A DNA stretch of 60,342 nucleotides, filler included. It is 8 parts of 8 records of this genome, joined end to end, with 100 filler letters (N's around TTAATTAATTAA, not from the genome) between each part and the next. Parts side by side here need not be neighbours in the genome. Positions count along the whole stretch, not along the records: positions 50,237 to 60,342 come from SRR31156797_67711; 7 more parts are not named here. One strand, given 5' to 3'. A program made the translations under genes and the position numbers. Shown in pieces: positions 9,690-60,342 of this stretch. Each line of letters starts with the position of its first letter. The stretch's first letter is position 1. Under the pieces are notes generated by a model that worked only from the letters and a program-made list of their open reading frames with translations, searched no databases and was not told where the DNA came from.

Positions 9690-10205
9690 ATGCCATTATT
9701 AGATAGTTTTAGAGTTGACCACACAATTATGCCAGCACCAGCGGTAAGAGTTGCAAAGACTATGAAGTCACCATCTGGTGATATTATCACAGTATTTGAT
9801 TTAAGATTCTGTGTACCAAATGAAAAAATGTTAGGGGAAAAAGGTATTCACACTTTAGAGCACCTTTTTGCAGGATTTATTAGAGAGCATTTAAACTCTG
9901 ATACAGTAGAAATCATTGATGTATCTCCTATGGGTTGTAGAACTGGTTTTTATATGAGTTTATTAGGAGCTCCAAGTGAAGAGCAAGTTGCAACTGCATG
10001 GAAACAAGCTATGGAAGATGTATTAAATGTACAATCACAAAATGATATTCCAGAGTTAAATGAGTTCCAATGTGGTACTTATAAAATGCACTCACTTGAT
10101 GAAGCAAAAGAGATTGCACAAGATATTTTAAACCAAAACATTGGTGTAATGTCAAATAAAGAACTTTTCCTTTCAGAAGAGAAGTTAAACTCTTTAGGAA
10201 ACTAA
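9690..10205 (+). CDS. luxS: S-ribosylhomocysteine lyase
   Basis: [33 protein letters not shown] motifs. Confidence 0.98.
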
Positions 10206-50136: not shown

Positions 50137-50237
50137 NNNNNNNNNNNNNNNNNNNNNNNNNNNNNNNNNNNNNNNNNNNNTTAATTAATTAANNNNNNNN
50201 NNNNNNNNNNNNNNNNNNNNNNNNNNNNNNNNNNNNA

Positions 50238-50750
50238 GTCAAAGAGCCGTCGTCGTCGTTTTCTTCCCATGATTTGAATGATCTCATGCAGGCTGTGAAG
50301 TCCAAACACCGAACCAAAGAGGTTGAGGCCAGGGTTACCAGAGCATTGAAAGATGGTCATAATCTTGAATATCTTCGTCGATGCATCGGGTACGCCAATG
50401 AGAAGAGCAATGGAAGTGATTACAAGGCGTATTTGGGCAAAAGCATTGATCACCCTGAATGGCATGAGGGCTTTGATCCTGATGAGCATATCAAGAAACT
50501 TCAGGCCGATATCGACAAACTAAGGGAACGGCAGGAAGAGCAGCAACTAGAACAAAACAAACTGAGAACGCGTCATGAGAAAATAACCGCCATGATCGAT
50601 GAGGTAGACACCGACGCTTTGGATGCCTTCATAGACGGCCAGGAACTCAACACCGTGGATCGAGGCAGGTTTAAGCGTGGGAAACGGGCAATGTTGCGGA
50701 GGAGGTTTGTGTCTGAATTTGCCGACCGGGGCCGGAAAAAAACGTCATGA
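50238..50750 (+). CDS. C-terminal half of the HTH replication-initiator-like protein that starts at 59850
   Basis: In frame across the junction; DnaD/replisome-organizer-like segment DYKAYLGKSIDHPEW. Confidence 0.75.
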   Translation, partial: VKEPSSSFSSHDLNDLMQAVKSKHRTKEVEARVTRALKDGHNLEYLRRCIGYANEKSNGSDYKAYLGKSIDHPEWHEGFDPDEHIKKLQADIDKLRERQEEQQLEQNKLRTRHEKITAMIDEVDTDALDAFIDGQELNTVDRGRFKRGKRAMLRRRFVSEFADRGRKKTS

Positions 50751-51025
50751 GCCATTCAGACCGAATTATCAGCTTACACACGAATGCACCGGAGGGAAGT
50801 CTTTCCGAGTGGGAAGACGAATTCATAATTGATAGTGAGTTTGAGATACCGAAATACAGTAGCGTGTGTCATCGCTGCGCTCATTTGACAAATGGATATG
50901 AAAGGCGATGCTTGGCGTTTCCTAATGGCATCCCCATGGAAATTTGGATGGGAGAAAATAATCATTCGGAAGTTCATCCAGAGCAAGAGAATGACATTGT
51001 CTTTGAGTCGTTGCTGGATGAATGA
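50747..51025 (+). CDS. Small Cys/His-rich hypothetical protein
   Basis: ATGA overlap with the upstream stop; CHRCAH..CLAFPNGIPMEI..H..QENDIVFE. Confidence 0.7.
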   Translation: MSHSDRIISLHTNAPEGSLSEWEDEFIIDSEFEIPKYSSVCHRCAHLTNGYERRCLAFPNGIPMEIWMGENNHSEVHPEQENDIVFESLLDE

Positions 51026-51333
51026 TCCCCTTTCCCCTGCCCGGTGACGGATCTTGCCTTGTCTGCAAAAACGAAAAAGTTTTCGTATCTGGTAACAAAT
51101 CGTTCAAAAACGGTACCCGAGTTCCGTTTTCACCACCTCGAATCTCGAACCGATTTTCAGGCAAAAAACCGGCAAAAGCGCAGTCAATTGCGCTTTTCTA
51201 CGACATTCGAAGCGCTCAAAACGGTGTTGTTTCCAACCCCAAACGAATAATATTCTGCCTGCACGATCTGTAACCATTGACGTTCAACAGTCTGGAATTA
51301 CACCATAACAACCACACAACGTATCGAACCTTT

Positions 51334-51361
51334 ACGTACGATAAGATGTATTATGTTAACT
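51334..51361 (+). other. dif-like XerC/XerD site 1
   Basis: ACGTACGATAA-GATGTA-TTATGTTAACT versus E. coli dif GGTGCGCATAA-TGTATA-TTATGTTAAAT. Confidence 0.8.
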
Positions 51362-51502
51362 TTTTTGAGGGGTCGGAGCACTAAGGTATCCACCGCATGA
51401 GTATGACAAAACCCATGCCGGGTGGGTGTTTTGATGGAATACACGGATTCCGGAATTTTGATGGGCGCTGGTTGCTGGATATCGAATAGAAACTTTAGAC
51501 GC

Positions 51503-51531
51503 TTGACATAACTTTTGTTGAGTAGTAGACT
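51503..51531 (+). promoter_or_regulatory. Sigma70-type promoter
   Basis: TTGACA-17 bp-TAGACT. Confidence 0.65.
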
Positions 51532-51669
51532 GCTTGCACAAATTGTGAAGCACGAGCCATTGCCTCATCCTTAGGGACTCGCTTTGGCCTAAGCCGACTC
51601 GCTTAAATGGAAAACATCCTTCGACCTCCGCGTAATGGTGAGCATCGTAGGATACGCCAAAAGCACCAT

Positions 51670-51737
51670 AAGGGCCTCATCGGAGAGATAAATCAACGCC
51701 ATAGTTGTTTTGTTTCTCTGATGAGGCCCTTTTTTTT
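51670..51737 (+). terminator. Leader terminator/attenuator before the HTH-primase operon
   Basis: 17-bp stem AAGGGCCTCATCGGAGA/TCTCTGATGAGGCCCTT followed by a T-run. Confidence 0.65.
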
Positions 51738-51758
51738 GTAATTTTTTTGGAGGTATTT

Positions 51759-52001
51759 ATGAGTAGCAATCTGTTGAAAGAACTCTCAATAAAGCAACCG
51801 CACCCTTGCAAAATCCATTTCGAGGGACTCAACAACCAGCCACTTGCCCGAGCACTCGGGATCAGTCCGAACTATTGCTATGACGTTTTGAATGGATCGA
51901 AGAGGCCAGGGCCGGACCTGAATAAACGGATCTATGATCTGGCTGAACGGGTCATGGCTGAGAGAGAGGCGGAAGAGCAGGCCGAATGCGCGCATGCGTA
52001 A
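51759..52001 (+). CDS. Small Cro/Xre-like HTH protein
   Basis: GGAGG RBS; NQPLARALGISPNYCYDVLNGSKRPG. Confidence 0.75.
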   Translation: MSSNLLKELSIKQPHPCKIHFEGLNNQPLARALGISPNYCYDVLNGSKRPGPDLNKRIYDLAERVMAEREAEEQAECAHA

Positions 52002-52080
52002 TTTTCAAACTCCAGAAACAGCAAAGCCCAACGATCTTTTAGGCGGGGATTAGTCGGGCTTTGCAAAGGAAAATTTATAG

Positions 52081-54798
52081 ATGGATACTACCAAAACTGA
52101 GACTCAAAAGCAATCAAAAGTTAAACTTTCACCGGATGCTATCAGCCGCCTCTATGCTGCATGCAATGACATACTCACGTATGATGACTTAGATCTACGG
52201 GGACAGAAGAATGGTAGAGAATTTCAAAAAATCGACTGCATTCATTGTGGTGGAAAGGGATGCTGTTTTACTGATCCGAACAAAAAGCAGATCACATGTC
52301 GGAAGTGCAACCGAACCGAAGATTACGCCGGATATTATAAATATAAGCATGGTTTCAAATCATTTGAGATGTTCAAGGCAATCGTTCCGGTATTGTTCAA
52401 CGATGAGATGGAGGCCGTCAGGTATCAGGGTGCTAAAGAGGATTTTCTGAATTTCAATACCGCCCCTAAACAATCTACCGGGCAGGAAGAAAGAGGTCCC
52501 GATCCGGCAACCATCGACCCGGAGACCGCTAAGGCCATCAAGAAGAACCAGGACATTTTCAATCGGTTCTGCAACGGCCAGGTAAAACACAATCAAATTC
52601 TAAACCTATTCAAACTCCGAGGCATCCCTGAAGAGCATGTCAGGCCGGAACTCGGAGATAGCATCCGTTGGAAAAGCAATCACGGCGACCCGAAAAAACC
52701 GGATGAGCAGCGTGACGTGGTGGTGATAGCCTGTCATTCCCTGCCCGGTAAAGAACACACTTCACAGCAGTACTTCACGCCGGACAATTCATATTTCCCT
52801 GGGACAAAGACCCGTAGAAAATCTTCACCTGCCATCGGACATGGATTTCATTTTGCTGGCGCTCCCCTGGATGCTCCTACCACAAACAAGCTGTACGTCA
52901 CTGAGAGCATCATGAATGCGTTTTCACTGCTCCCCTATGTGGATACCTCCACCTCTTGCGTTGTCTCTATTCTAAGCAGTAGTGAGGCCCGGAAGAAGGC
53001 GGAGATGCTGAAGCCGTGGGTTAAGGATTTCAAGGTGGTGGTCTCATGTGGTGACAATGACAAGGCCGGTAATGGAATGGATAACACCATTGCCAAAGTC
53101 CTAAAAGATACCGTCGCTGTATGGGGGCTTAATTGGGGGCGAGACGACCCGGATGATACCAATAAGCTCCAACAGGCCGGGAGTTGTGATCGACTGCGAG
53201 AGCTGGTGAAAAAGCCGATGCCTATTAAGATCAAGGATGATGATCCGCCTATAAAAACCACCAAAAATGATGAAGAGTGGGAAGACCCGCAGGCCATAGA
53301 AGAAGAGTTACTACCCGTTGACAGTCTGCCAGATGACGCCATTCCAACGCCGTATAAGGCATGGGTTAGGGACATATCCCACAGGTGGGCTGTTCCTGCC
53401 GATTTTCCGTTCATCTCAACTCTTATTGTCACAAGTGCCATTATCGGCACCGGAGCAGTCATCAAACCAAAAAAACGTGACGACTGGACAGTTGTACCGA
53501 ATCTATGGGGTGGGATCATTGGAGATCCATCTGTTATGAAATCGCCGGTTTTAAATGAGGTCATTAATAAATCTATGGGCCGGTTGGAAGCAACTGCAAG
53601 GCAAAAACTCCATGATGACCTGGACGAGTTTAAAGCTGATAAATTTATTTTTGATGAGACCGTCAAGGCGAAAGAGAACGATATCAAAAAGGCCATCAAA
53701 AATGGAGGGACAACTGATGAGCTTAAATCTGAATTAAAAGATCTGAATCGGCACGTTATGGATAAACCGACCGAGCGAAGATACAAAGTCAACGACTGCA
53801 CCATTGAAAAATATGTTGAACTGAACAAGGAAAACCCCAGGGGGCTCCTTTATTTTCGAGATGAGTTGATTGGTTTTTTTAAGCGATTAGACAAAGAGGG
53901 AAATGAGGCTGATAGGGCGTTATGTATGGAGGCATGGAACGGCCAGGGCAACTATACACAAGACCGGATAGGTAGGGGCAGTATTCGAGCAAAAAACCTT
54001 TGCATGTCCCTAATTGGGGGGATTCAGCCGGATAAAATCATTGGATATCTCAATGATGCCATGAATGGTGGAAATGATGGTTTTGTTCAACGACTACAGA
54101 TGATGGTTTATCCAGATAGAAAGAAGTGGGAATTCATAGACCAATATCCAGACACCGACGCCAAAAACACTTTTTACACCGTGATTGAGGTGCTGGCTGA
54201 AATGCGTGATTCTGACTTTATAGAAGCTGGCGCAGATATGCCGGATGATGAAGATTTTCCACATTTCAAGTTTGATGAACCATCCTACCAACTTTTCAAA
54301 GCCTGGATGTCCGACCTTCAACAAAAAATTGAAAACGTTGATGAGCATCAAATCATTCGGGAACATCTCAGTAAATATAAATCCCTAATGCCATCGTTGG
54401 CGCTTATTTACCATTTGATCGAAGTTGCATCTGGTGTGAGTGGTAGTGAGTCTATCCCGGAGCATTGCACTAAACAGGCCATAGCATGCGTCAAATACCT
54501 TGAATCCCACGCAAGGCGTATCTATGGCATGGCTATTGATTCGAGTAGCACGGGTGCAGTGGCATTATCTCAAAAGATACTTGCGGGAAAGGTGAAGAGT
54601 CCGTTCACCGCCAGGGATATCTACATCTCCGGTTGGAGCAAATTGAACAACTCAGATGATGCTCAAAAGGCTATTGATTATTTGGATGGTAAGAACTGGA
54701 TCAAAGAGACCGAACAGAGAAACCCACTGAAAGGTGGTAGGCCGAAAACCGAGTATATTATCAATCCGAAAGTGTTTGATATCCAAAAAGCACAATAG
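52081..54798 (+). CDS. Zn-finger / Toprim primase fused to a DUF3987 (YfjI-family) helicase-like domain
   Basis: CIHC..CRKC; VTES..GDNDKAG; VPNLWGGIIGDPSVMKS, RDEL, DRIGRG, GGIQP, DGFVQR; C-terminal wHTH GGRPKTEYIINP. Confidence 0.85.
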   Translation: MDTTKTETQKQSKVKLSPDAISRLYAACNDILTYDDLDLRGQKNGREFQKIDCIHCGGKGCCFTDPNKKQITCRKCNRTEDYAGYYKYKHGFKSFEMFKAIVPVLFNDEMEAVRYQGAKEDFLNFNTAPKQSTGQEERGPDPATIDPETAKAIKKNQDIFNRFCNGQVKHNQILNLFKLRGIPEEHVRPELGDSIRWKSNHGDPKKPDEQRDVVVIACHSLPGKEHTSQQYFTPDNSYFPGTKTRRKSSPAIGHGFHFAGAPLDAPTTNKLYVTESIMNAFSLLPYVDTSTSCVVSILSSSEARKKAEMLKPWVKDFKVVVSCGDNDKAGNGMDNTIAKVLKDTVAVWGLNWGRDDPDDTNKLQQAGSCDRLRELVKKPMPIKIKDDDPPIKTTKNDEEWEDPQAIEEELLPVDSLPDDAIPTPYKAWVRDISHRWAVPADFPFISTLIVTSAIIGTGAVIKPKKRDDWTVVPNLWGGIIGDPSVMKSPVLNEVINKSMGRLEATARQKLHDDLDEFKADKFIFDETVKAKENDIKKAIKNGGTTDELKSELKDLNRHVMDKPTERRYKVNDCTIEKYVELNKENPRGLLYFRDELIGFFKRLDKEGNEADRALCMEAWNGQGNYTQDRIGRGSIRAKNLCMSLIGGIQPDKIIGYLNDAMNGGNDGFVQRLQMMVYPDRKKWEFIDQYPDTDAKNTFYTVIEVLAEMRDSDFIEAGADMPDDEDFPHFKFDEPSYQLFKAWMSDLQQKIENVDEHQIIREHLSKYKSLMPSLALIYHLIEVASGVSGSESIPEHCTKQAIACVKYLESHARRIYGMAIDSSSTGAVALSQKILAGKVKSPFTARDIYISGWSKLNNSDDAQKAIDYLDGKNWIKETEQRNPLKGGRPKTEYIINPKVFDIQKAQ

Positions 54799-54824
54799 AG
54801 ATTGTTTTTTTACCGATAATACTT

Positions 54825-55091
54825 TTACCGGGCAGAAGGAAAGGGTTTTGATGGTTTTGATGGTGCTGTTCCTGGGCATATCTCTATTTTTTTTTGATGG
54901 CTTTGAGGTACCCCTCTTAATATCCATTTTATATATATATACATATATATATAAATGAACTATATAATACGAAATGTGGTGTGAATTGATAAAAAAAAAT
55001 AGGATATCCCTAAAAGGGGCACCATCAAAACCTACAAAACCCCCAAGCCCATTAAATGAGCCAGAATAAACTCTTCCCTTCTGCCCGGTAA
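54825..55091. promoter_or_regulatory. Putative replication origin: nested inverted repeats and iterons around an AT-rich core
   Basis: TTACCGGGCAGAAGG 54825-54839 with its complement at 55077-55091; GGTTTTGATGGTGC 54853-54866 with its complement at 55019-55032; repeated TTTTGATGG; (TA)n core. Confidence 0.65.
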
Positions 55092-55361
55092 TAATCCTGC
55101 CGGGTGGAGAGGTGCCGTTGTCCCGATCTGACCCACCACAACATATAGTGTTGTCAGGAAAGTATACCTTGTTGGTTGGTTTGGAAATAATGACGATCAT
55201 TTCAAATTTGTCTAAAAGTTGTTGAACACGTTTTGAGATAAAACTCTTGCGTTTTGTTCATTACTACGGCTATTATATATAGAAAAGTAATGGTTTTTGT
55301 ATAGTAATAAATCCTGAGATTGGCATAATTTCGGGAAATTCGATCTGGGGCGGGGGAATCA

Positions 55362-55613
55362 ATGGCAACAAAAATTAGAAAACACCGGTTGATGAGATTG
55401 ACGGATCTGCGGCGGTTCATGGCTGCTAAGGTCAATCAACTCAATGCCGGTGAGATCGATACGGACACCGCCAGGGCGTTTGGGTATTTGTGTTCATGCC
55501 TGAAAGACATCATCAAGGAGTCCGACATTGAGAGCCGGGTCAAGGAACTTGAAACGCAACTGGCAGAACGGGATGCAGCTACGACAGGGAATGGACGGAG
55601 GACATATCGATGA
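55362..55613 (+). CDS. Small hypothetical protein (helical, coiled-coil C-terminus)
   Basis: GGGGG RBS; ATGA-coupled to the next gene. Confidence 0.7.
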   Translation: MATKIRKHRLMRLTDLRRFMAAKVNQLNAGEIDTDTARAFGYLCSCLKDIIKESDIESRVKELETQLAERDAATTGNGRRTYR

Positions 55614-55891
55614 ACAGGTCATTGGAAAAACGAGTATCTCGGTTGGAGCTGGAACTGAACCCACCGCCACCGGATCAGCAGATTGTGATCACCGCCAATT
55701 TTGGCCGGAAAGATGCGCCGGTGAAATCATGGAGCGGTGTGGAGCGGTTGCCAGATGAGGCGCCGGATGAGCATCGGGAACGTGCTGTTGATACCCTGGT
55801 GGAGCGATCCCGACAGCGGGGCCATGGGGTGACACTGATCGTTGCGGAACCGGACAATGAAATGAATAATGGAGAGATAAAAAATGATTGA
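55610..55891 (+). CDS. Small hypothetical protein, paralog of 56581-56898
   Basis: SLEKRVSRLE ... ERLPDEAPDEHRERA. Confidence 0.65.
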   Translation: MNRSLEKRVSRLELELNPPPPDQQIVITANFGRKDAPVKSWSGVERLPDEAPDEHRERAVDTLVERSRQRGHGVTLIVAEPDNEMNNGEIKND

Positions 55892-56579
55892 TAGAATTAA
55901 AAATGTAGCATCTCAATACCGAAAACAGTTGGGGGAAATTAGTCCCGACCTGAAAAATGAAGTGCAGAATCAAAAAAAAGCTGAGGTCCACAAAGCTCTC
56001 AAATCTGGTGTGGAGGCATTACGGGTCGAGGCAGACACATTGGTTCGAGATTTCCGGCAGGTTCGGGAGCGGAACCTTGACCGCCGGTATCTGGTGGCGA
56101 CCAGGGCAACCAACGGGATCAAAGATCTGACCCTGGGTGAATCTCAGTTGATCAACATGATTGATAAGCTGCCCCCCTCTCTTCTGCCCGGTCTGGCATC
56201 GGATGACAAAGTTACTGGGTATCATCCCCTTGTCCGATTGAGCCTATTGAACCGTGCTGAAGGGATGACAAATCCGGTCGATGGAGTCAAGGTGGGTGGA
56301 TCTGCCGCCTATGCTGAGGCCGTTGATGGTCAGAAGGTGGGGCATGCCATTGTTGATTCTATCCTAAAATCCGAGTCGGTCAATATCGATGGGTTGCGTT
56401 CCGAGGCTGCTAAAATTTCCGAGACGTGTTTAGCTATGGCTGATCTCATGGATGCCTCCCAGCAGTCGAACCGAGGCTATCAGAAAATGTATTCAAAGTA
56501 TGCGGAAGAGGTGATCAATGACACCCAGGACGCCATAGAATCGTTTCAGAATGCGTTTCAGCCAAAACAGGTGGGTTGA
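55884..56579 (+). CDS. Hypothetical protein
   Basis: GGAG RBS; overlapping operon structure. Confidence 0.7.
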   Translation: MIDRIKNVASQYRKQLGEISPDLKNEVQNQKKAEVHKALKSGVEALRVEADTLVRDFRQVRERNLDRRYLVATRATNGIKDLTLGESQLINMIDKLPPSLLPGLASDDKVTGYHPLVRLSLLNRAEGMTNPVDGVKVGGSAAYAEAVDGQKVGHAIVDSILKSESVNIDGLRSEAAKISETCLAMADLMDASQQSNRGYQKMYSKYAEEVINDTQDAIESFQNAFQPKQVG

Positions 56580-56580
56580 C

Positions 56581-56898
56581 ATGGGTAATCTGCAAAAGCG
56601 CATAGAACGGTTAGAAAAGCACATTGTGATCGATGATGATCAACCCGCATGTATTGTCATCAGCACCGTGGATGCCCGGAGGGGCGCACCGGAGCCACCG
56701 GATGATGTGGATGATTATCATGTCCTCCGCACTGATCGTGGTCGAACGTATGAGCGTGGGAAAGATGAGGCGCCGGAAGACTTCAAATATCGTGCTGCCG
56801 ATGCGGAACGTGCGGTCATGCAGCCGGGGGCCGTGCCGGTATTTTTCGGGGAGAGATCCACGGATTCAGAAAATCAGAGCGTTGTTTATAACGAATAA
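56581..56898 (+). CDS. Small hypothetical protein, paralog of 55610-55891
   Basis: NLQKRIERLE ... ERGKDEAPEDFKYRA. Confidence 0.65.
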   Translation: MGNLQKRIERLEKHIVIDDDQPACIVISTVDARRGAPEPPDDVDDYHVLRTDRGRTYERGKDEAPEDFKYRAADAERAVMQPGAVPVFFGERSTDSENQSVVYNE

Positions 56899-56982
56899 TT
56901 GAGATGTTCAGGAATGAGCATGTTACACACTAGAGTTACAAAAAACCTGAAAACCCCCGTCAATAGGGCGTCTTCAGGTTTT

Positions 56983-57010
56983 GGGTACGATAATATACAT
57001 TATGTTAACT
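56983..57010 (+). other. dif-like XerC/XerD site 2
   Basis: GGGTACGATAA-TATACA-TTATGTTAACT; same orientation as site 1. Confidence 0.82.
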
Positions 57011-57352
57011 TTATGAGTGTGTCCAATTCAAGTATCTGAAATAACATAGAAAAGTGTCAAATCCACCATGTTGCAATGTAGTATTGGATTTCGACTCTGT
57101 TTATAAATGTATCGGTATTTTGTGACATTCCCGAGATAAATACCGATGCCCCACCACGAATATCGAATGTGGGAATCACCGGCGATTGTGCATTAAAAAA
57201 TAAAAAAAAATACAGGAAACGGGATGGCTGGTGATTCCCTCCCCTTTTTTAAACCGTATCAAAAAGCATTGCCTAAAAGCCCCTCCATCAGCCGTTCGGC
57301 ACCTGCCCCATATCATAGCATTCGGATAGAAAACACCTCTTAAATCAGAGGC

Positions 57353-57402
57353 TTGACACCACCCATAGATTTGTGTATTATATCGTTATAAACAACGATA
57401 AT
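57353..57402 (+). promoter_or_regulatory. Sigma70 promoter with an overlapping operator
   Basis: TTGACA(57353)-17 bp-TATTAT(57376), then inverted repeat TATCGTT-N6-AACGATA. Confidence 0.7.
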
Positions 57403-57417
57403 CACATGGGGGATGTT

Positions 57418-58233
57418 ATGGCAGCCAAAAGACTGGATATCACCGGAGCGGAGTACAGGCATCGAGTCAGGGAACAGCAAAAAGCCCGGTTCAAAAGGCA
57501 TCAAGAGAAAATGAAATCCGATGGGTTCAAGATGACATCGGTGTTCATGAGTGAGGGGTTGAGATCTGAGATTGACCGGATCATGAAAACCGATGGCGTC
57601 ACCAAATGGCAGGCCATGGAGCGGATCTACCAAGAGTACTTAAATAACGTTAGAAATAACGATAATGGCAAAAGAGAGATCCATCGAATATACCCAATTC
57701 CTGATGCCGTCATTGATGCAATCCCTAAAGAGTACATGGGAGATGGAGTCAAAAACATTGTCCATAGCGCTCTTATTTTCCACACACAACGTGCTGTGAC
57801 CGACGCCCTGCGTTCAGTGTACCGAAATAATCAATGCACCGGTATCGGCAAATTCATAGAGTTGCTGAAAAAGTCGTTGAGGGTGGATACCGAGCAGGAA
57901 CGAAAAAAACTTACTCCGCCGGAAGAGTACCCCAATCAGCAGCCGCTTTTGTTCGATGATGAGCCGAAACACAACCGCGTTTGCGGTGGGCCAACAGATC
58001 TGTCATTCATCGACCCGTGTGAGGGTATGACCAGGGCCGAACGCCGGGAGTACATTGATAAATTCATCATGGATCGATTGGAGGTTGCCGGGCAGGGTGG
58101 GAAAATGACGTACCAGCAGGTGTGCGAGGCGCTGGAATATGCCGGTATCAAAACCCCGAGGGGTAATGATAAATGGGCGATTGGTAGCGTCAACACCGCA
58201 TTCAGACGGATCATGAAAAACCGGGAGGAATGA
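57418..58233 (+). CDS. DNA-binding protein with an RHH-like N-terminus and a recombinase-domain-like C-terminal HTH
   Basis: MTSVFMSEGLRSEID; TYQQVCEALEYAGIKTPRGNDKWAIGSV; no catalytic serine-recombinase domain seen. Confidence 0.65.
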   Translation: MAAKRLDITGAEYRHRVREQQKARFKRHQEKMKSDGFKMTSVFMSEGLRSEIDRIMKTDGVTKWQAMERIYQEYLNNVRNNDNGKREIHRIYPIPDAVIDAIPKEYMGDGVKNIVHSALIFHTQRAVTDALRSVYRNNQCTGIGKFIELLKKSLRVDTEQERKKLTPPEEYPNQQPLLFDDEPKHNRVCGGPTDLSFIDPCEGMTRAERREYIDKFIMDRLEVAGQGGKMTYQQVCEALEYAGIKTPRGNDKWAIGSVNTAFRRIMKNREE

Positions 58234-58271
58234 TCATGTAACCATGGCGCTGGCTGATTCAATATGTTGGT

Positions 58272-58627
58272 GTCTGACCCCTGGGCGGGTGGGGAAAATC
58301 TTCAAATGTGCGCCAAGCGCACATTTAGAAAAGTCTGACCCCTGGGCGGGAATGGGCTGTTTACCGAGTAAACTTATTAACCGTTGGTAAACTTCTGCCC
58401 CACGCGGGCGGGTGGATGAAAATGTCAACTTGTCGCGACGTCGCGACATTTTAAAAGTCTGACCCATGCGGATGCGGTGCAAGCAAAGTGTTTTTTTGAA
58501 TTTTTAGACTCCATAAAAAAGGCGTCAATTTTCACGATGTCGTGAGGAATTAACAGTCTAACCCGTGGGCGGGTGGGGGGAAATGGTAGATTTCTACCAT
58601 TTTGGTCAGATGCCATGTCTGACCCGT
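58272..58627 (+). repeat. Non-CRISPR repeat-spacer array: six degenerate GTCTGACCCNTGGGCGGGTGG repeats with palindrome-centred spacers
   Basis: Repeats start at 58272, 58333, 58393, 58457, 58556 and 58617 (last one truncated). Confidence 0.8.
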
Positions 58628-58860
58628 CATTGGTGGCTTGGAGATTGGTGGAATGCCTGTAAGTGGGGGGATGATAGGCGGAAAGAGATTTGTAAGCAGA
58701 TTGGTGTGGAATACGATACTGCTAAAGATTGTGGTTGGGTTGCAAGAAACTTTAAATTGTCTTTACGTAAAGACAATTTAACATTCAGCCACCACAAAGA
58801 AGTCTGCCAAATAAATGACTCTGCCACCAAATGTCAACTTCTCGACTGGTGCCTATCTAG
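58628..58860 (+). pseudogene. Internal fragment of an LmbU-like HTH gene
   Basis: WWLGDW..IGVEYDTAKDCGWVARNFKLSLRKDNLTFSHHKEV..LLDW; begins right after repeat 6 without its own start. Confidence 0.6.
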
Positions 58861-59047
58861 TGCCTACCTGGGAAACCTTCCTCCCTGCCCGGTGATCAAT
58901 CTCATTTTTCTCTTGACCACGACCCCACTTTCATTCTATCCAAAAAGAGCCGTGGCAAAATCCACGGTGTCGGTTTGACAGCCGATAAGTTCGGCGCAGG
59001 TGAGCGCATTCAATCCATCACCACCTGTGTATCTATACGCCGAAAAC

Positions 59048-59118
59048 GGGCAGTATAGGTGGGAGACTTTCGGGTCTGCCGGTTCCGAACTCCGGTCTGT
59101 CAACCCACCTTGCTGTCC
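59048..59118 (+). ncRNA. c4-type antisense RNA (P1 C4 / P4 CI family)
   Basis: Cloverleaf closed by GGGCAG..AGGTGGG/CCCACCT.GCTGTCC; hairpin AGACTTTCGGGTCT; b' CCGAACT and a' CTGTCAA have complementary targets on both sides. Confidence 0.85.
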
Positions 59119-59173
59119 TTTTCTATTTTGACAGGTAGAAAGGGCGTAACCCCTTAAGTTCGGAGCACCCACC

Positions 59174-59596
59174 ATGCAAAACGAAACCATCATGAACACC
59201 ATTCCCCAGCCGTTACCACGGAACTATGATCCCAGAGACAAAATTGTACAGGATCTGTCGGTACGCCATTCAAAACTATATTTTTACGTTTCAGTTTTAG
59301 GCACTGAAACCCCCATCGATACGGTTCAATTGGATTTATTCGATGACGTCCTATCCTATGAAGTTGAAAAATTAGAAGGGCTTTGCCGACTGCACCTTGA
59401 GACCGATGAGGGGCGCTCAACGATCCTCGGAGATATCATGCTGAGTCAGATAAAATCATTTGCAGATCGGTTAAATGAAATGTCATTTCATGTTGGGAGA
59501 AATATTGGTGATATTGAGTTGACATGCGCCTATCTTCACGCCAGAAGCTTCGATCCGGGCACCGTATTTGATGCAGAGTTGAAGCCTGTTCAATAA
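59174..59596 (+). CDS. Hypothetical protein under c4 control
   Basis: RBS GGAG overlaps the b2 target; no family recognised. Confidence 0.7.
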   Translation: MQNETIMNTIPQPLPRNYDPRDKIVQDLSVRHSKLYFYVSVLGTETPIDTVQLDLFDDVLSYEVEKLEGLCRLHLETDEGRSTILGDIMLSQIKSFADRLNEMSFHVGRNIGDIELTCAYLHARSFDPGTVFDAELKPVQ

Positions 59597-59679
59597 TGAG
59601 ATCGCTTGGAGCGATGGCGCAGGAAAAATAAATAGTCCTTGACGATATCGTCTGAATATCGCTTTTATGACGAAGTGAA

Positions 59680-59765
59680 AATAAAAAAACCCCGTTGATG
59701 CGACGAACATCAACAGGGTTTAGAAATTGGTATGGAGCGTTCATGCAGGAACACTCACCGCCACC
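59680..59765 (-). ncRNA. Candidate counter-transcribed copy-control RNA
   Basis: Minus-strand TTGAAT(59800-59795)-17 bp-TATCCT(59777-59772); hairpin 59687-59721 followed by a U-run. Confidence 0.55.
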
Positions 59766-59849
59766 GAGTGAAGGATAAGACAATCCTGATTTAGATTCAA
59801 GAGTTTTATCCGTTTTTCTGCCAGCGCTCCCAAAACTAAGGGAGTTCTC

Positions 59850-60342
59850 ATGAGTACCATACGTGTATCCAAGTCCGATAATTTCAGCATCATTTCTAAC
59901 CATCATCTCCGTAATAAAAATCTATCTCTGAAGGCGGTTGGGCTTTTAACCATACTGTTATCGCTCCCCGATAATTGGAATGCCAATGTCAATCACCTTG
60001 TCACTATCTGCCGGGACGGAAAGAAGGCCATTTATTCAGCCATAAAAGAGTTAAAAGAGGCGGGATACATTGAACATGTGACTATCAGGGATGCCAATGC
60101 AAAGATTTTAAAATGGGAGTACATTGTCTATGAGCACCCCATTGAAAAGGCCGTGAACAGTGAAGAAAAGCTACTTTCCCAAAAGGGACAAGTAGCTAAG
60201 GTACAAGTAGCTAAGGGCGATGGAATAATAAAGACTAAAAGTCCTTTACGAAAAACTAATAGTATTAAAAACGACGACGTACCGGCACCACTCACACCTC
60301 CACCTGACCCGATACCGGAAGTCAAAGAGCCGTCGTCGTCGT
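59850..60342 (+). CDS. N-terminal half of a 327-aa HTH replication-initiator / replisome-organizer-like protein (continues at 50260)
   Basis: Manual translation MSTIRVSKSDNFSIISNHHLRNKNLSLKAVGLLTILLSLPDNW..DGKKAIYSAIKELKEAGYI..WEYIVYEHP; missing from the ORF track. Confidence 0.8.
   Translation, partial: MSTIRVSKSDNFSIISNHHLRNKNLSLKAVGLLTILLSLPDNWNANVNHLVTICRDGKKAIYSAIKELKEAGYIEHVTIRDANAKILKWEYIVYEHPIEKAVNSEEKLLSQKGQVAKVQVAKGDGIIKTKSPLRKTNSIKNDDVPAPLTPPPDPIPEVKEPSSS

Follow-up and report, generated by a model that had tools for sequence, protein, structure and literature searches.

A 10-kb circular contig with two direct Xer-type sites bordering two replication blocks: a possible Xer-mediated fusion of two small replicons

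Sites of the cer and psi type on plasmids require some 180 bp of accessory sequence, with sites for PepA and for ArgR or ArcA, and their action is limited to directly repeated copies in a dimer. What defines the integrative mobile elements exploiting Xer recombination (IMEX) is that they insert at the chromosomal dif. As described in the portion of PMC5357621 available to us, XerC and XerD bind the two arms of a site and exchange strands in the central region between them, and plasmids resolve their dimers in this way; exchange by XerC alone is possible at cer, and the VGJ-type site is processed by XerC alone. Fusion of co-resident plasmids at Xer sites, and their resolution, have been shown by experiment in Acinetobacter (PMC5790767, PMC11705084, both in the accessible parts). 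In the same portion of PMC11705084, cointegrates arise only when the central regions of the two sites are the same or nearly so, sites with unrelated ones are not seen to recombine, and excision requires direct sites with identical central regions. Replication offers a further point of comparison: in cyanobacteria, CyRepA, which joins a Toprim-like part to a helicase, can sustain the replication of a plasmid by itself (PMC10079941, available part). Here we examined a 60,342-base stretch of DNA (the window), the last contig of which is a free plasmid-like circle of 10,083 bp. Two direct dif-like sites lie on this circle at the borders of two blocks with different replication genes. We judge the chances to be evenly balanced that the circle consists of two small replicons fused by Xer and held together by the unlike central regions of the two sites.

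The window is made of eight unrelated contigs (G+C 26-58%), with N...TTAATTAATTAA...N spacers as joints. The first 23 bases of the last contig (50237-60342; 10,106 nt) are the same as its last 23 bases, an overlap confined to this contig among the eight, and the reading frame of its Rep gene leaves the 3' end and resumes at base 50238. The terminal overlap and the Rep frame across the junction together close the contig into a circle, as an initial annotation of this DNA had supposed. All confident genes of the circle are on the + strand, with GGAGG-type ribosome-binding sites upstream of the circle genes, and genes for resistance, toxins or virulence are absent. Searches of 16 translated open reading frames (ORFs) against Pfam and NCBIfam, and of 13 against PHROGs, detected no family of integrases, resolvases or relaxases, which agrees with the earlier description of the elements as integrase-less; partition and toxin-antitoxin families were likewise undetected in these searches, and the Pfam and NCBIfam results include no xer gene. 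Megablast of the whole circle against plasmid and phage collections gave no match. An assembly artefact, in which two circles had been merged via a common repeat, was considered and rejected, the longest exact string common to the two site regions being 14 nt.

The pattern GTACGATAA-N6-TTATGTTAACT is found exactly twice in the window, at 51336-51361 and 56985-57010, both times on the + strand and with no mismatch; two matches to it arose in none of 100 shuffles (mean 0.00). Both sites are built of an 11-bp arm, a 6-bp central region and a second 11-bp arm, with ATAA and TTAT bordering the central region. Compared as 28-mers they agree at 23 of 28 positions, with identical core arms. The likeness reaches outward to TTT..GTACGATAA and AACTTT, and past 3 nt per side the flanks have nothing in common. 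The central regions, GATGTA in site 1 and TATACA in site 2, differ at three of six positions; positions 2 and 3 agree, and the mismatch falls mostly on the XerD side. The initial annotation had described the shared arms, the two spacers and the direct orientation in just these terms.

In direct orientation, the two sites divide the circle into arcs of 5,649 bp (block A, measured from the start of site 1 to the start of site 2) and 4,434 bp (block B). A different replication gene lies in each arc, and the proposed division into two blocks by dif-like sites holds up. Each site sits between transcription units, at the border of the two replication blocks. Site 1 lies 60 nt past the last block B ORF and ahead of the block A promoter-like site, and site 2 directly follows the block A terminator hairpin, about 340 nt ahead of the best block B promoter-like site. 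The hairpin beside site 2 has a folding energy of -22.1 kcal/mol (z = -3.8; equally stable structures in 0 of 200 shuffles), and the XerC-type arm of site 2 shares its first bases with the 3' arm of the hairpin. We read it as a terminator of the upstream operon because a run of A precedes it and a run of T follows it. This is the inverted repeat previously placed at 56942-56982; it is real, with a wider extent (Table 1). A search for further or inverted sites in the circle, with relaxed patterns and in both orientations, yielded no credible one. The best extra candidate (53426, minus strand, one mismatch) has a broken TTAT core, lies inside the primase gene and was rejected.

Four reference difs were taken from a published table (Carnoy and Roten 2009; Table 1 of PMC2731167). 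The XerD arm, of the conserved TTATGTTAA type, matches the dif of Desulfovibrio vulgaris at 11 of 11 positions and that of E. coli at 10 of 11, and the less conserved XerC arm matches, in site 1, that of Anaeromyxobacter at 10 of 11. Over its whole length, site 1 agrees with the Anaeromyxobacter dif at 24 of 28 positions and with the Geobacter dif at 23 of 28. On both strands of the window, sites 1 and 2 are the top two 28-mers for the Anaeromyxobacter, Geobacter and D. vulgaris difs, site 2 being the best match to the last of these (22/28). Against the E. coli dif, site 2 is again the top match in the window (20/28) and site 1 reaches just 17/28.

We then looked for relatives of the sites on other replicons. 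A 35-nt query with site 1 (blastn) retrieved 1,123 plasmid records, 1,057 of them from Acinetobacter, with up to seven places per record, and the corresponding query with site 2 retrieved 92 records (Priestia 44, Bacillus 18, Acinetobacter 8, Sphingobium 4); with queries this short, single E-values are weak (0.007 to 4). The multi-place matches in Acinetobacter are the multi-copy pdif/xrs sites of that genus. Plasmid p5 of Priestia filamentosa has an intergenic site with both arms identical to those of site 1 and a different spacer, and a GTACGATAA-N6-TTATGTTAAC core is also present, again between genes, in a Sphingobium plasmid and in a metagenome-assembled genome (MAG) of Elusimicrobiaceae. 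In the MAG, the sequence GCGTACGATAA-TATATA-TTATGTTAACA lies between convergent ORFs at 2001-2025 of a 21-kb contig (L003), and it is plausibly a chromosomal dif with the core arms of the plasmid sites. The arms are thus closest to delta-proteobacterial difs in the 2009 table, yet identical to those of a site on a plasmid of Priestia, a member of the Bacillota. The host is probably not Acinetobacter, since there is no DNA match. Two matches in plasmid pS1 of Priestia megaterium (NZ_CP130476.1; 18,072 bp) were set aside as a second example, as the record is apparently a head-to-tail dimer; one protein accession is annotated in it at 935 and at 9977, about half of the record apart. The four DUF3987 plasmids that we fetched showed no dif-like core. 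Judged on their sequence, sites 1 and 2 are very probably XerC/XerD-type sites.

The opposing view, that the repeat is no Xer site at all and arose by chance or binds some other protein, draws on the individually weak E-values of the 35-nt searches. It has to reckon with a second copy that no shuffle reproduced, with two sites that are the top dif-like 28-mers of the window, with arms that recur on unrelated plasmids of two phyla, and with the canonical ATAA-N6-TTAT core next to a XerD arm that is matched in full. We regard it as highly improbable.

Among described systems, the pdif/xrs plasmids of Acinetobacter are the most similar: they too are small plasmids without their own recombinase, with 28-bp sites at the borders of gene blocks. 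There the central region sets the compatibility of sites (PMC11705084, available part), and site 1 is alignable with a pACICU1 site. The two differ in several respects. The circle has just two sites, both direct, whereas those of Acinetobacter are mostly in opposite orientation; it encodes HTH_36 and Toprim/DUF3987 proteins and no Rep_3 (Pfam), and no resistance genes; the XerC arm of the pACICU1 site differs, and the central regions of the sister sites here are unlike. Opposite sites, XerC/D then XerD/C, on a Rep_3 plasmid are what mark an Acinetobacter dif module, and the circle does not have this arrangement. Like the IMEX (CTX-phi, VGJ-phi, TLC-phi and the gonococcal genomic island, GGI), it has a dif-like site and no integrase of its own and would depend on host XerCD, and the XerD-side mismatch recalls the VGJ-type site, which uses XerC alone (PMC5357621, as far as available). 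Unlike the IMEX, it is known as a free circle with plasmid-type replication genes. With cer and psi it shares a core XerC/XerD site on a small plasmid of multicopy type, from which it differs in having two sites on a monomer. The circle is best filed as a new example of a known system, the multi-Xer-site plasmids that are built or rebuilt by Xer recombination. Its direct sites, its two different replication systems and its mismatched central regions are notable as distinctive features.

The replication genes of the two blocks have different relatives. A 905-aa protein of block A matches PHROG DNA helicase and primase families, and the N-terminal part of the block B Rep matches a PHROG replication initiation protein (E = 2.6e-23). 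From its sequence, the 905-aa product would resemble CyRepA and the DUF3987/YfjI family in combining primase-like and helicase parts in a small-plasmid replication protein (PMC10079941, in part). Plasmid pOSC7112.05 (7,645 bp) has a DUF3987 protein as its sole recognisable replication gene, and a look-alike cluster in the Atlas joins DUF3854 and DUF3987 in cyanobacteria. What sets the primase-helicase apart is its identity of at most 35% to proteins of the plasmid database, in the helicase half only. It matched 20 plasmid records in this way. The Rep N-terminus matched 303 records, so that at least 283 of these have no relative of the primase-helicase; most are from Leptospira, Bacillus and Piscirickettsia, with some others, and the genera differ from those matched by the primase-helicase. 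In the converse direction, none of four small plasmids that carry a DUF3987 relative, each examined whole, has a relative of Rep. For Rep, the best relatives (68, 64, 59 and 47% identity) lie on contigs of 4,169, 6,112, 3,251 and 2,547 bp. For the primase-helicase, the best ones (63 and 62% identity) come from contigs of 12,790 and 4,423 bp, and a further one from a contig of 3,556 bp. A relative of a 231-aa block A protein lies on a contig of 8,822 bp. Any of these contigs may be a fragment. No contig size is common to the three lists, which suggests that the Rep, primase-helicase and 231-aa gene sets travel apart. Look-alikes in the Atlas are mainly from Bacillota for Rep, and from Verrucomicrobiota, Pseudomonadota and phages for the primase-helicase. 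Such look-alikes of replication proteins were judged too soft a basis for naming the host.

Dif-type direct sites at the block borders, different replication genes on either side and the lack of an own recombinase make fusion by the host Xer system a reasonable explanation. We read the element as a small cryptic plasmid, each block of which has the look of a minimal replicon. As expected of a cointegrate, there are two direct sites, one per junction, and the arcs carry different replication genes. In the scheme that we favour, two small plasmids, each with one Xer site for multimer resolution, would have been fused by host XerC and XerD, leaving one hybrid site at each junction. Strand exchange may have been carried out by XerC only, with replication or a junction resolvase completing the reaction, a course known from cer and from integration of the VGJ/CTX type. 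On such a pathway each central region would remain joined to its XerD arm, and the XerD-side mismatch seen here would be a VGJ-like pattern by analogy. Later mutation is an alternative source of the unlike central regions. A complete XerC plus XerD exchange between site 1 and site 2 would be inefficient, making the fusion stable; in a dimer, recombination of each site with its duplicate would still be possible and would return the plasmid to monomers. Any splitting or fusion that did take place would follow the XerC-only route. Since excision needs identical central regions (PMC11705084, available part), sites 1 and 2 should not readily split the circle, and poor recombination between them would hold the fusion together. 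We infer the autonomy of the blocks, the binding of Xer proteins, the fusion event and the locking by central regions from this arrangement. Co-integration by Xer had also been proposed in the initial annotation, with the differing spacers left unweighed; the proposal stands as reasonable, and its product is not that of a simple XerCD reaction. A bolder version would be a fusion-fission plasmid outside Acinetobacter, in which two autonomous mini-replicons undergo reversible XerC-only exchange between central regions that match on the XerC side only. This we think unlikely; if true, a cell would hold a mixture of 10.1-, 5.6- and 4.4-kb circles, and either part might enter the chromosome at dif.

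Several observations weigh against a fusion of two replicons. The central regions themselves are one, as the sister sites of a cointegrate should have identical or near-identical central regions and these two do not. A complete exchange between like sites would thus not by itself have given this pair, which, with three of six central positions differing, needs an XerC-only pathway, later mutation or a multi-step history. Separate circles of 5.6 or 4.4 kb were not seen, and the contigs of the relatives are possibly fragments. The exact 9-mer ACCGGGCAG occurs seven times in the window, where 0.35 occurrences are expected, and every copy is in the circle. It mostly precedes a purine run, may be recognised by a plasmid protein and, in two of its copies, makes up the outer inverted repeat around an AT-rich origin-like region. 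Its restriction to the circle and its presence in both blocks speak against two unrelated replicons having joined recently, and fit a long common history or one plasmid that evolved as a unit. In their tri- and tetranucleotide signatures, blocks A and B correlate (r = 0.90 and 0.78) as the halves of one block do; since three unrelated contigs of the window resemble them just as closely, this test is powerless here. The Rep initiator and the primase-helicase can also be parts of one replicon, so that each block is only a putative replicon of its own. None of 10 ORF products of the circle was found by exact look-up in a collection of 15 billion proteins, so there is no second observation of the plasmid. 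Finally, the exact arms occur at three loci in 185,579 species genomes, a count close to the chance expectation for 19 specified bases; one of the three resembles a chance match, and none of them carries such genes.

Alternatively, the circle could be one plasmid, with Rep and the primase-helicase serving a single replicon and with direct sites of unlike central regions bounding exchangeable arcs. A related plasmid would fuse at one like pair of sites and resolve at the other, swapping the arc, as in the two-step model for Acinetobacter dif modules. In the available part of its description (Balalovski and Grainge; PMC11705084), the model requires unlike central regions, each site pairing with its like. 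The circle-specific 9-mer in both arcs, the common direction of all genes and the indistinguishable composition of the arcs are in keeping with this history. It fits less well with the rarity of the Rep and primase-helicase types on one plasmid record, with nearest relatives of the two replication genes that lie on different small contigs, and with the presence, in either arc, of a separate regulator and a separate candidate for an origin or iteron region. Moreover, Acinetobacter modules are typically bounded by opposite sites (same source and portion) and the sites here are direct. We consider a single plasmid with exchangeable arcs possible, though not what we would expect. The sites could also be there only to resolve multimers, as cer and psi do, or one could be a decaying duplicate, with their position at the borders incidental and the blocks joined in some other way. 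Large Priestia and Sphingobium plasmids do have single intergenic sites with the same arms, once per record, and host Xer commonly resolves dimers of small plasmids (PMC5357621, available part). In a decaying duplicate, losses should appear in the arms before they appear in the spacer, and here there are two intact sites with fully conserved core arms, both of them at replication-block borders of a 10-kb circle, which makes this explanation quite unlikely.

The label used in the initial annotation, a composite IMEX, would make the circle the excised form of two integrase-less elements that stood in tandem at the host's chromosomal dif. A tandem array excised between its outer sites would indeed become a circle bearing two sites in direct orientation, recombinase genes are lacking (Pfam, NCBIfam, PHROGs), and the central regions, in differing on the XerD side, recall the XerC-only relation between VGJ-type attP and dif (PMC5357621, in part). 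The contig itself speaks for a plasmid: it closes on itself, with a Rep ORF that spans the junction and with no chromosomal flank, and both blocks have plasmid-type replication genes and nothing like the functions of filamentous phages or islands. Nor did any genome among the 185,579 species representatives have these arms around such genes, at the three loci found. We consider an excised tandem array very unlikely and do not retain the label. Tandem CTX, TLC and GGI integration, which had been cited as precedent, is likewise more distant than the fusion and resolution of Acinetobacter plasmids (PMC5790767, PMC11705084; available parts). Fusion of two small replicons by Xer remains the reading that we prefer, at the even balance stated above.

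The features of the circle are listed in Table 1. The gene content previously assigned to the two modules was largely confirmed by Pfam, NCBIfam and PHROGs; 'ori', 'regulator' and 'array' are kept as descriptive labels.

Table 1. Coordinates of the window spacers and of the features of the 10,083-bp circle (positions in the window).
Feature	Position	Strand	Remarks
Spacers between window contigs	~6493, 11688, 16969, 23912, 29234, 40520, 50137		
Whole element	50237..60342		23-nt terminal overlap; Rep ORF over junction
Rep C-terminal part	50238..50750	+	same frame across circle junction
Two small ORFs after Rep (92, 83 aa)	50747..51273	+	no family; end 60 nt before site 1
ACCGGGCAG copies	51037, 52477, 52741, 54827, 55081, 56184, 58885		five in block A, two in block B
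Probable Xer site 1	51334..51361	+	XerC-type arm ACGTACGATAA, central region GATGTA, XerD-type arm TTATGTTAACT
Promoter-like site, block A	51503-51531		
Small helix-turn-helix (HTH) protein	51705..52001	+	HTH_3, E = 6e-4, below curated cut-off
Primase-helicase, 905 aa	52081..54798	+	DUF3987 E = 2.8e-67; Toprim_2 E = 4e-6
Origin-like region	54825..55091		AT-rich core with (TA)12 inside nested inverted repeats
Four overlapping ORFs (83, 93, 231, 115 aa)	55362..56898	+	no family in Pfam, NCBIfam, PHROGs
Terminator-like hairpin adjoining site 2	56937..56987	+	arms 56937-56958 and 56966-56987
Probable Xer site 2	56983..57010	+	arm GGGTACGATAA, central region TATACA, arm TTATGTTAACT
Best promoter-like site of circle	57353-57381		11/12 matches
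Orphan ORF, 286 aa	57373..58233	+	no family above any cut-off (Pfam, NCBIfam)
23-nt repeat, four irregularly spaced copies	58272..58578	+	GTCTGACCCCTGGGCGGGTGGGG type; iteron- or operator-like
137-aa ORF	58565..58978	+	partial LmbU-family match, E = 7e-14, 52 bits, cut-off 125
C4-like antisense RNA and a1/b1-like target element	58936..59123	+	upstream of 140-aa ORF and Rep
140-aa ORF	59174..59596	+	between C4-like RNA and Rep; no family (Pfam, NCBIfam, PHROGs)
Rep N-terminal part (HTH_36, DnaD-like initiator)	59850..60342	+	HTH_36 E = 5.5e-8

Block A opens with the small HTH protein, the likely start of which is an ATG at 51759 with a GGAGG ribosome-binding site upstream. Homologues of the primase-helicase that follows align, at best, over its C-terminal 57% only. 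The N-terminal ~40% of this protein (52081-53250) has a Cys-rich, zinc-ribbon-like stretch and the Toprim domain, and no close relative. Downstream, the putative origin of the block, an AT-rich region, contains GGTTTTGAT repeats and has TTACCGGGCAGAAGGAAAGGG as the arms of its outer inverted repeat. In the four-gene cargo operon beyond it, the 93-aa (55610-55891) and 115-aa (56551-56898) products are weak paralogues (27% identity, E = 2e-4), and their genes share a 29-nt DNA repeat (55742 and 56752). The 231-aa protein of the same operon had five matches among 1.84 billion representatives in a full HMMER search, a single one of them close (52%), and this search gave no functional lead; tblastn of the 231-aa ORF against plasmids found no match.

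Block B begins with the orphan 286-aa ORF, called the regulator in the initial annotation, for which tblastn against plasmids found no match and a word-index protein search gave 431 candidates, none at E <= 1e-5. The C4-like RNA (59043-59123; 41.3 bits, Rfam gathering score 45) and the a1/b1-like element (58936-58987; 28.0 bits, gathering score 46.7) both score below threshold. Together they recall the RNA switch of P1 immunity, here apparently positioned to control a plasmid replication operon. The two halves of Rep align with one 329-aa homologue (P0121), the first half with its residues 1-141 (77% identity) and the second with its residues 161-326 (39% identity, E = 4e-28); summing the two ORF halves, we estimate the full Rep at ~327 aa. 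Within the Rep gene, a 15-nt tandem repeat (2.3 copies; 60183-60217) encodes a KGQVAK-type linker from the HTH domain to the C-terminal domain.

To our knowledge, experiments on Xer sites as joints in the fusion of plasmids and the shuffling of genes have been almost confined to Acinetobacter resistance plasmids. The value of the present circle is mechanistic and evolutionary rather than medical, as it has no resistance, toxin or virulence gene. It would serve as a minimal natural substrate for relating the mismatch of central regions to fusion and splitting. A circle with two sites and two replicons from an unrelated host would point to a mechanism shared by small cryptic plasmids in general.

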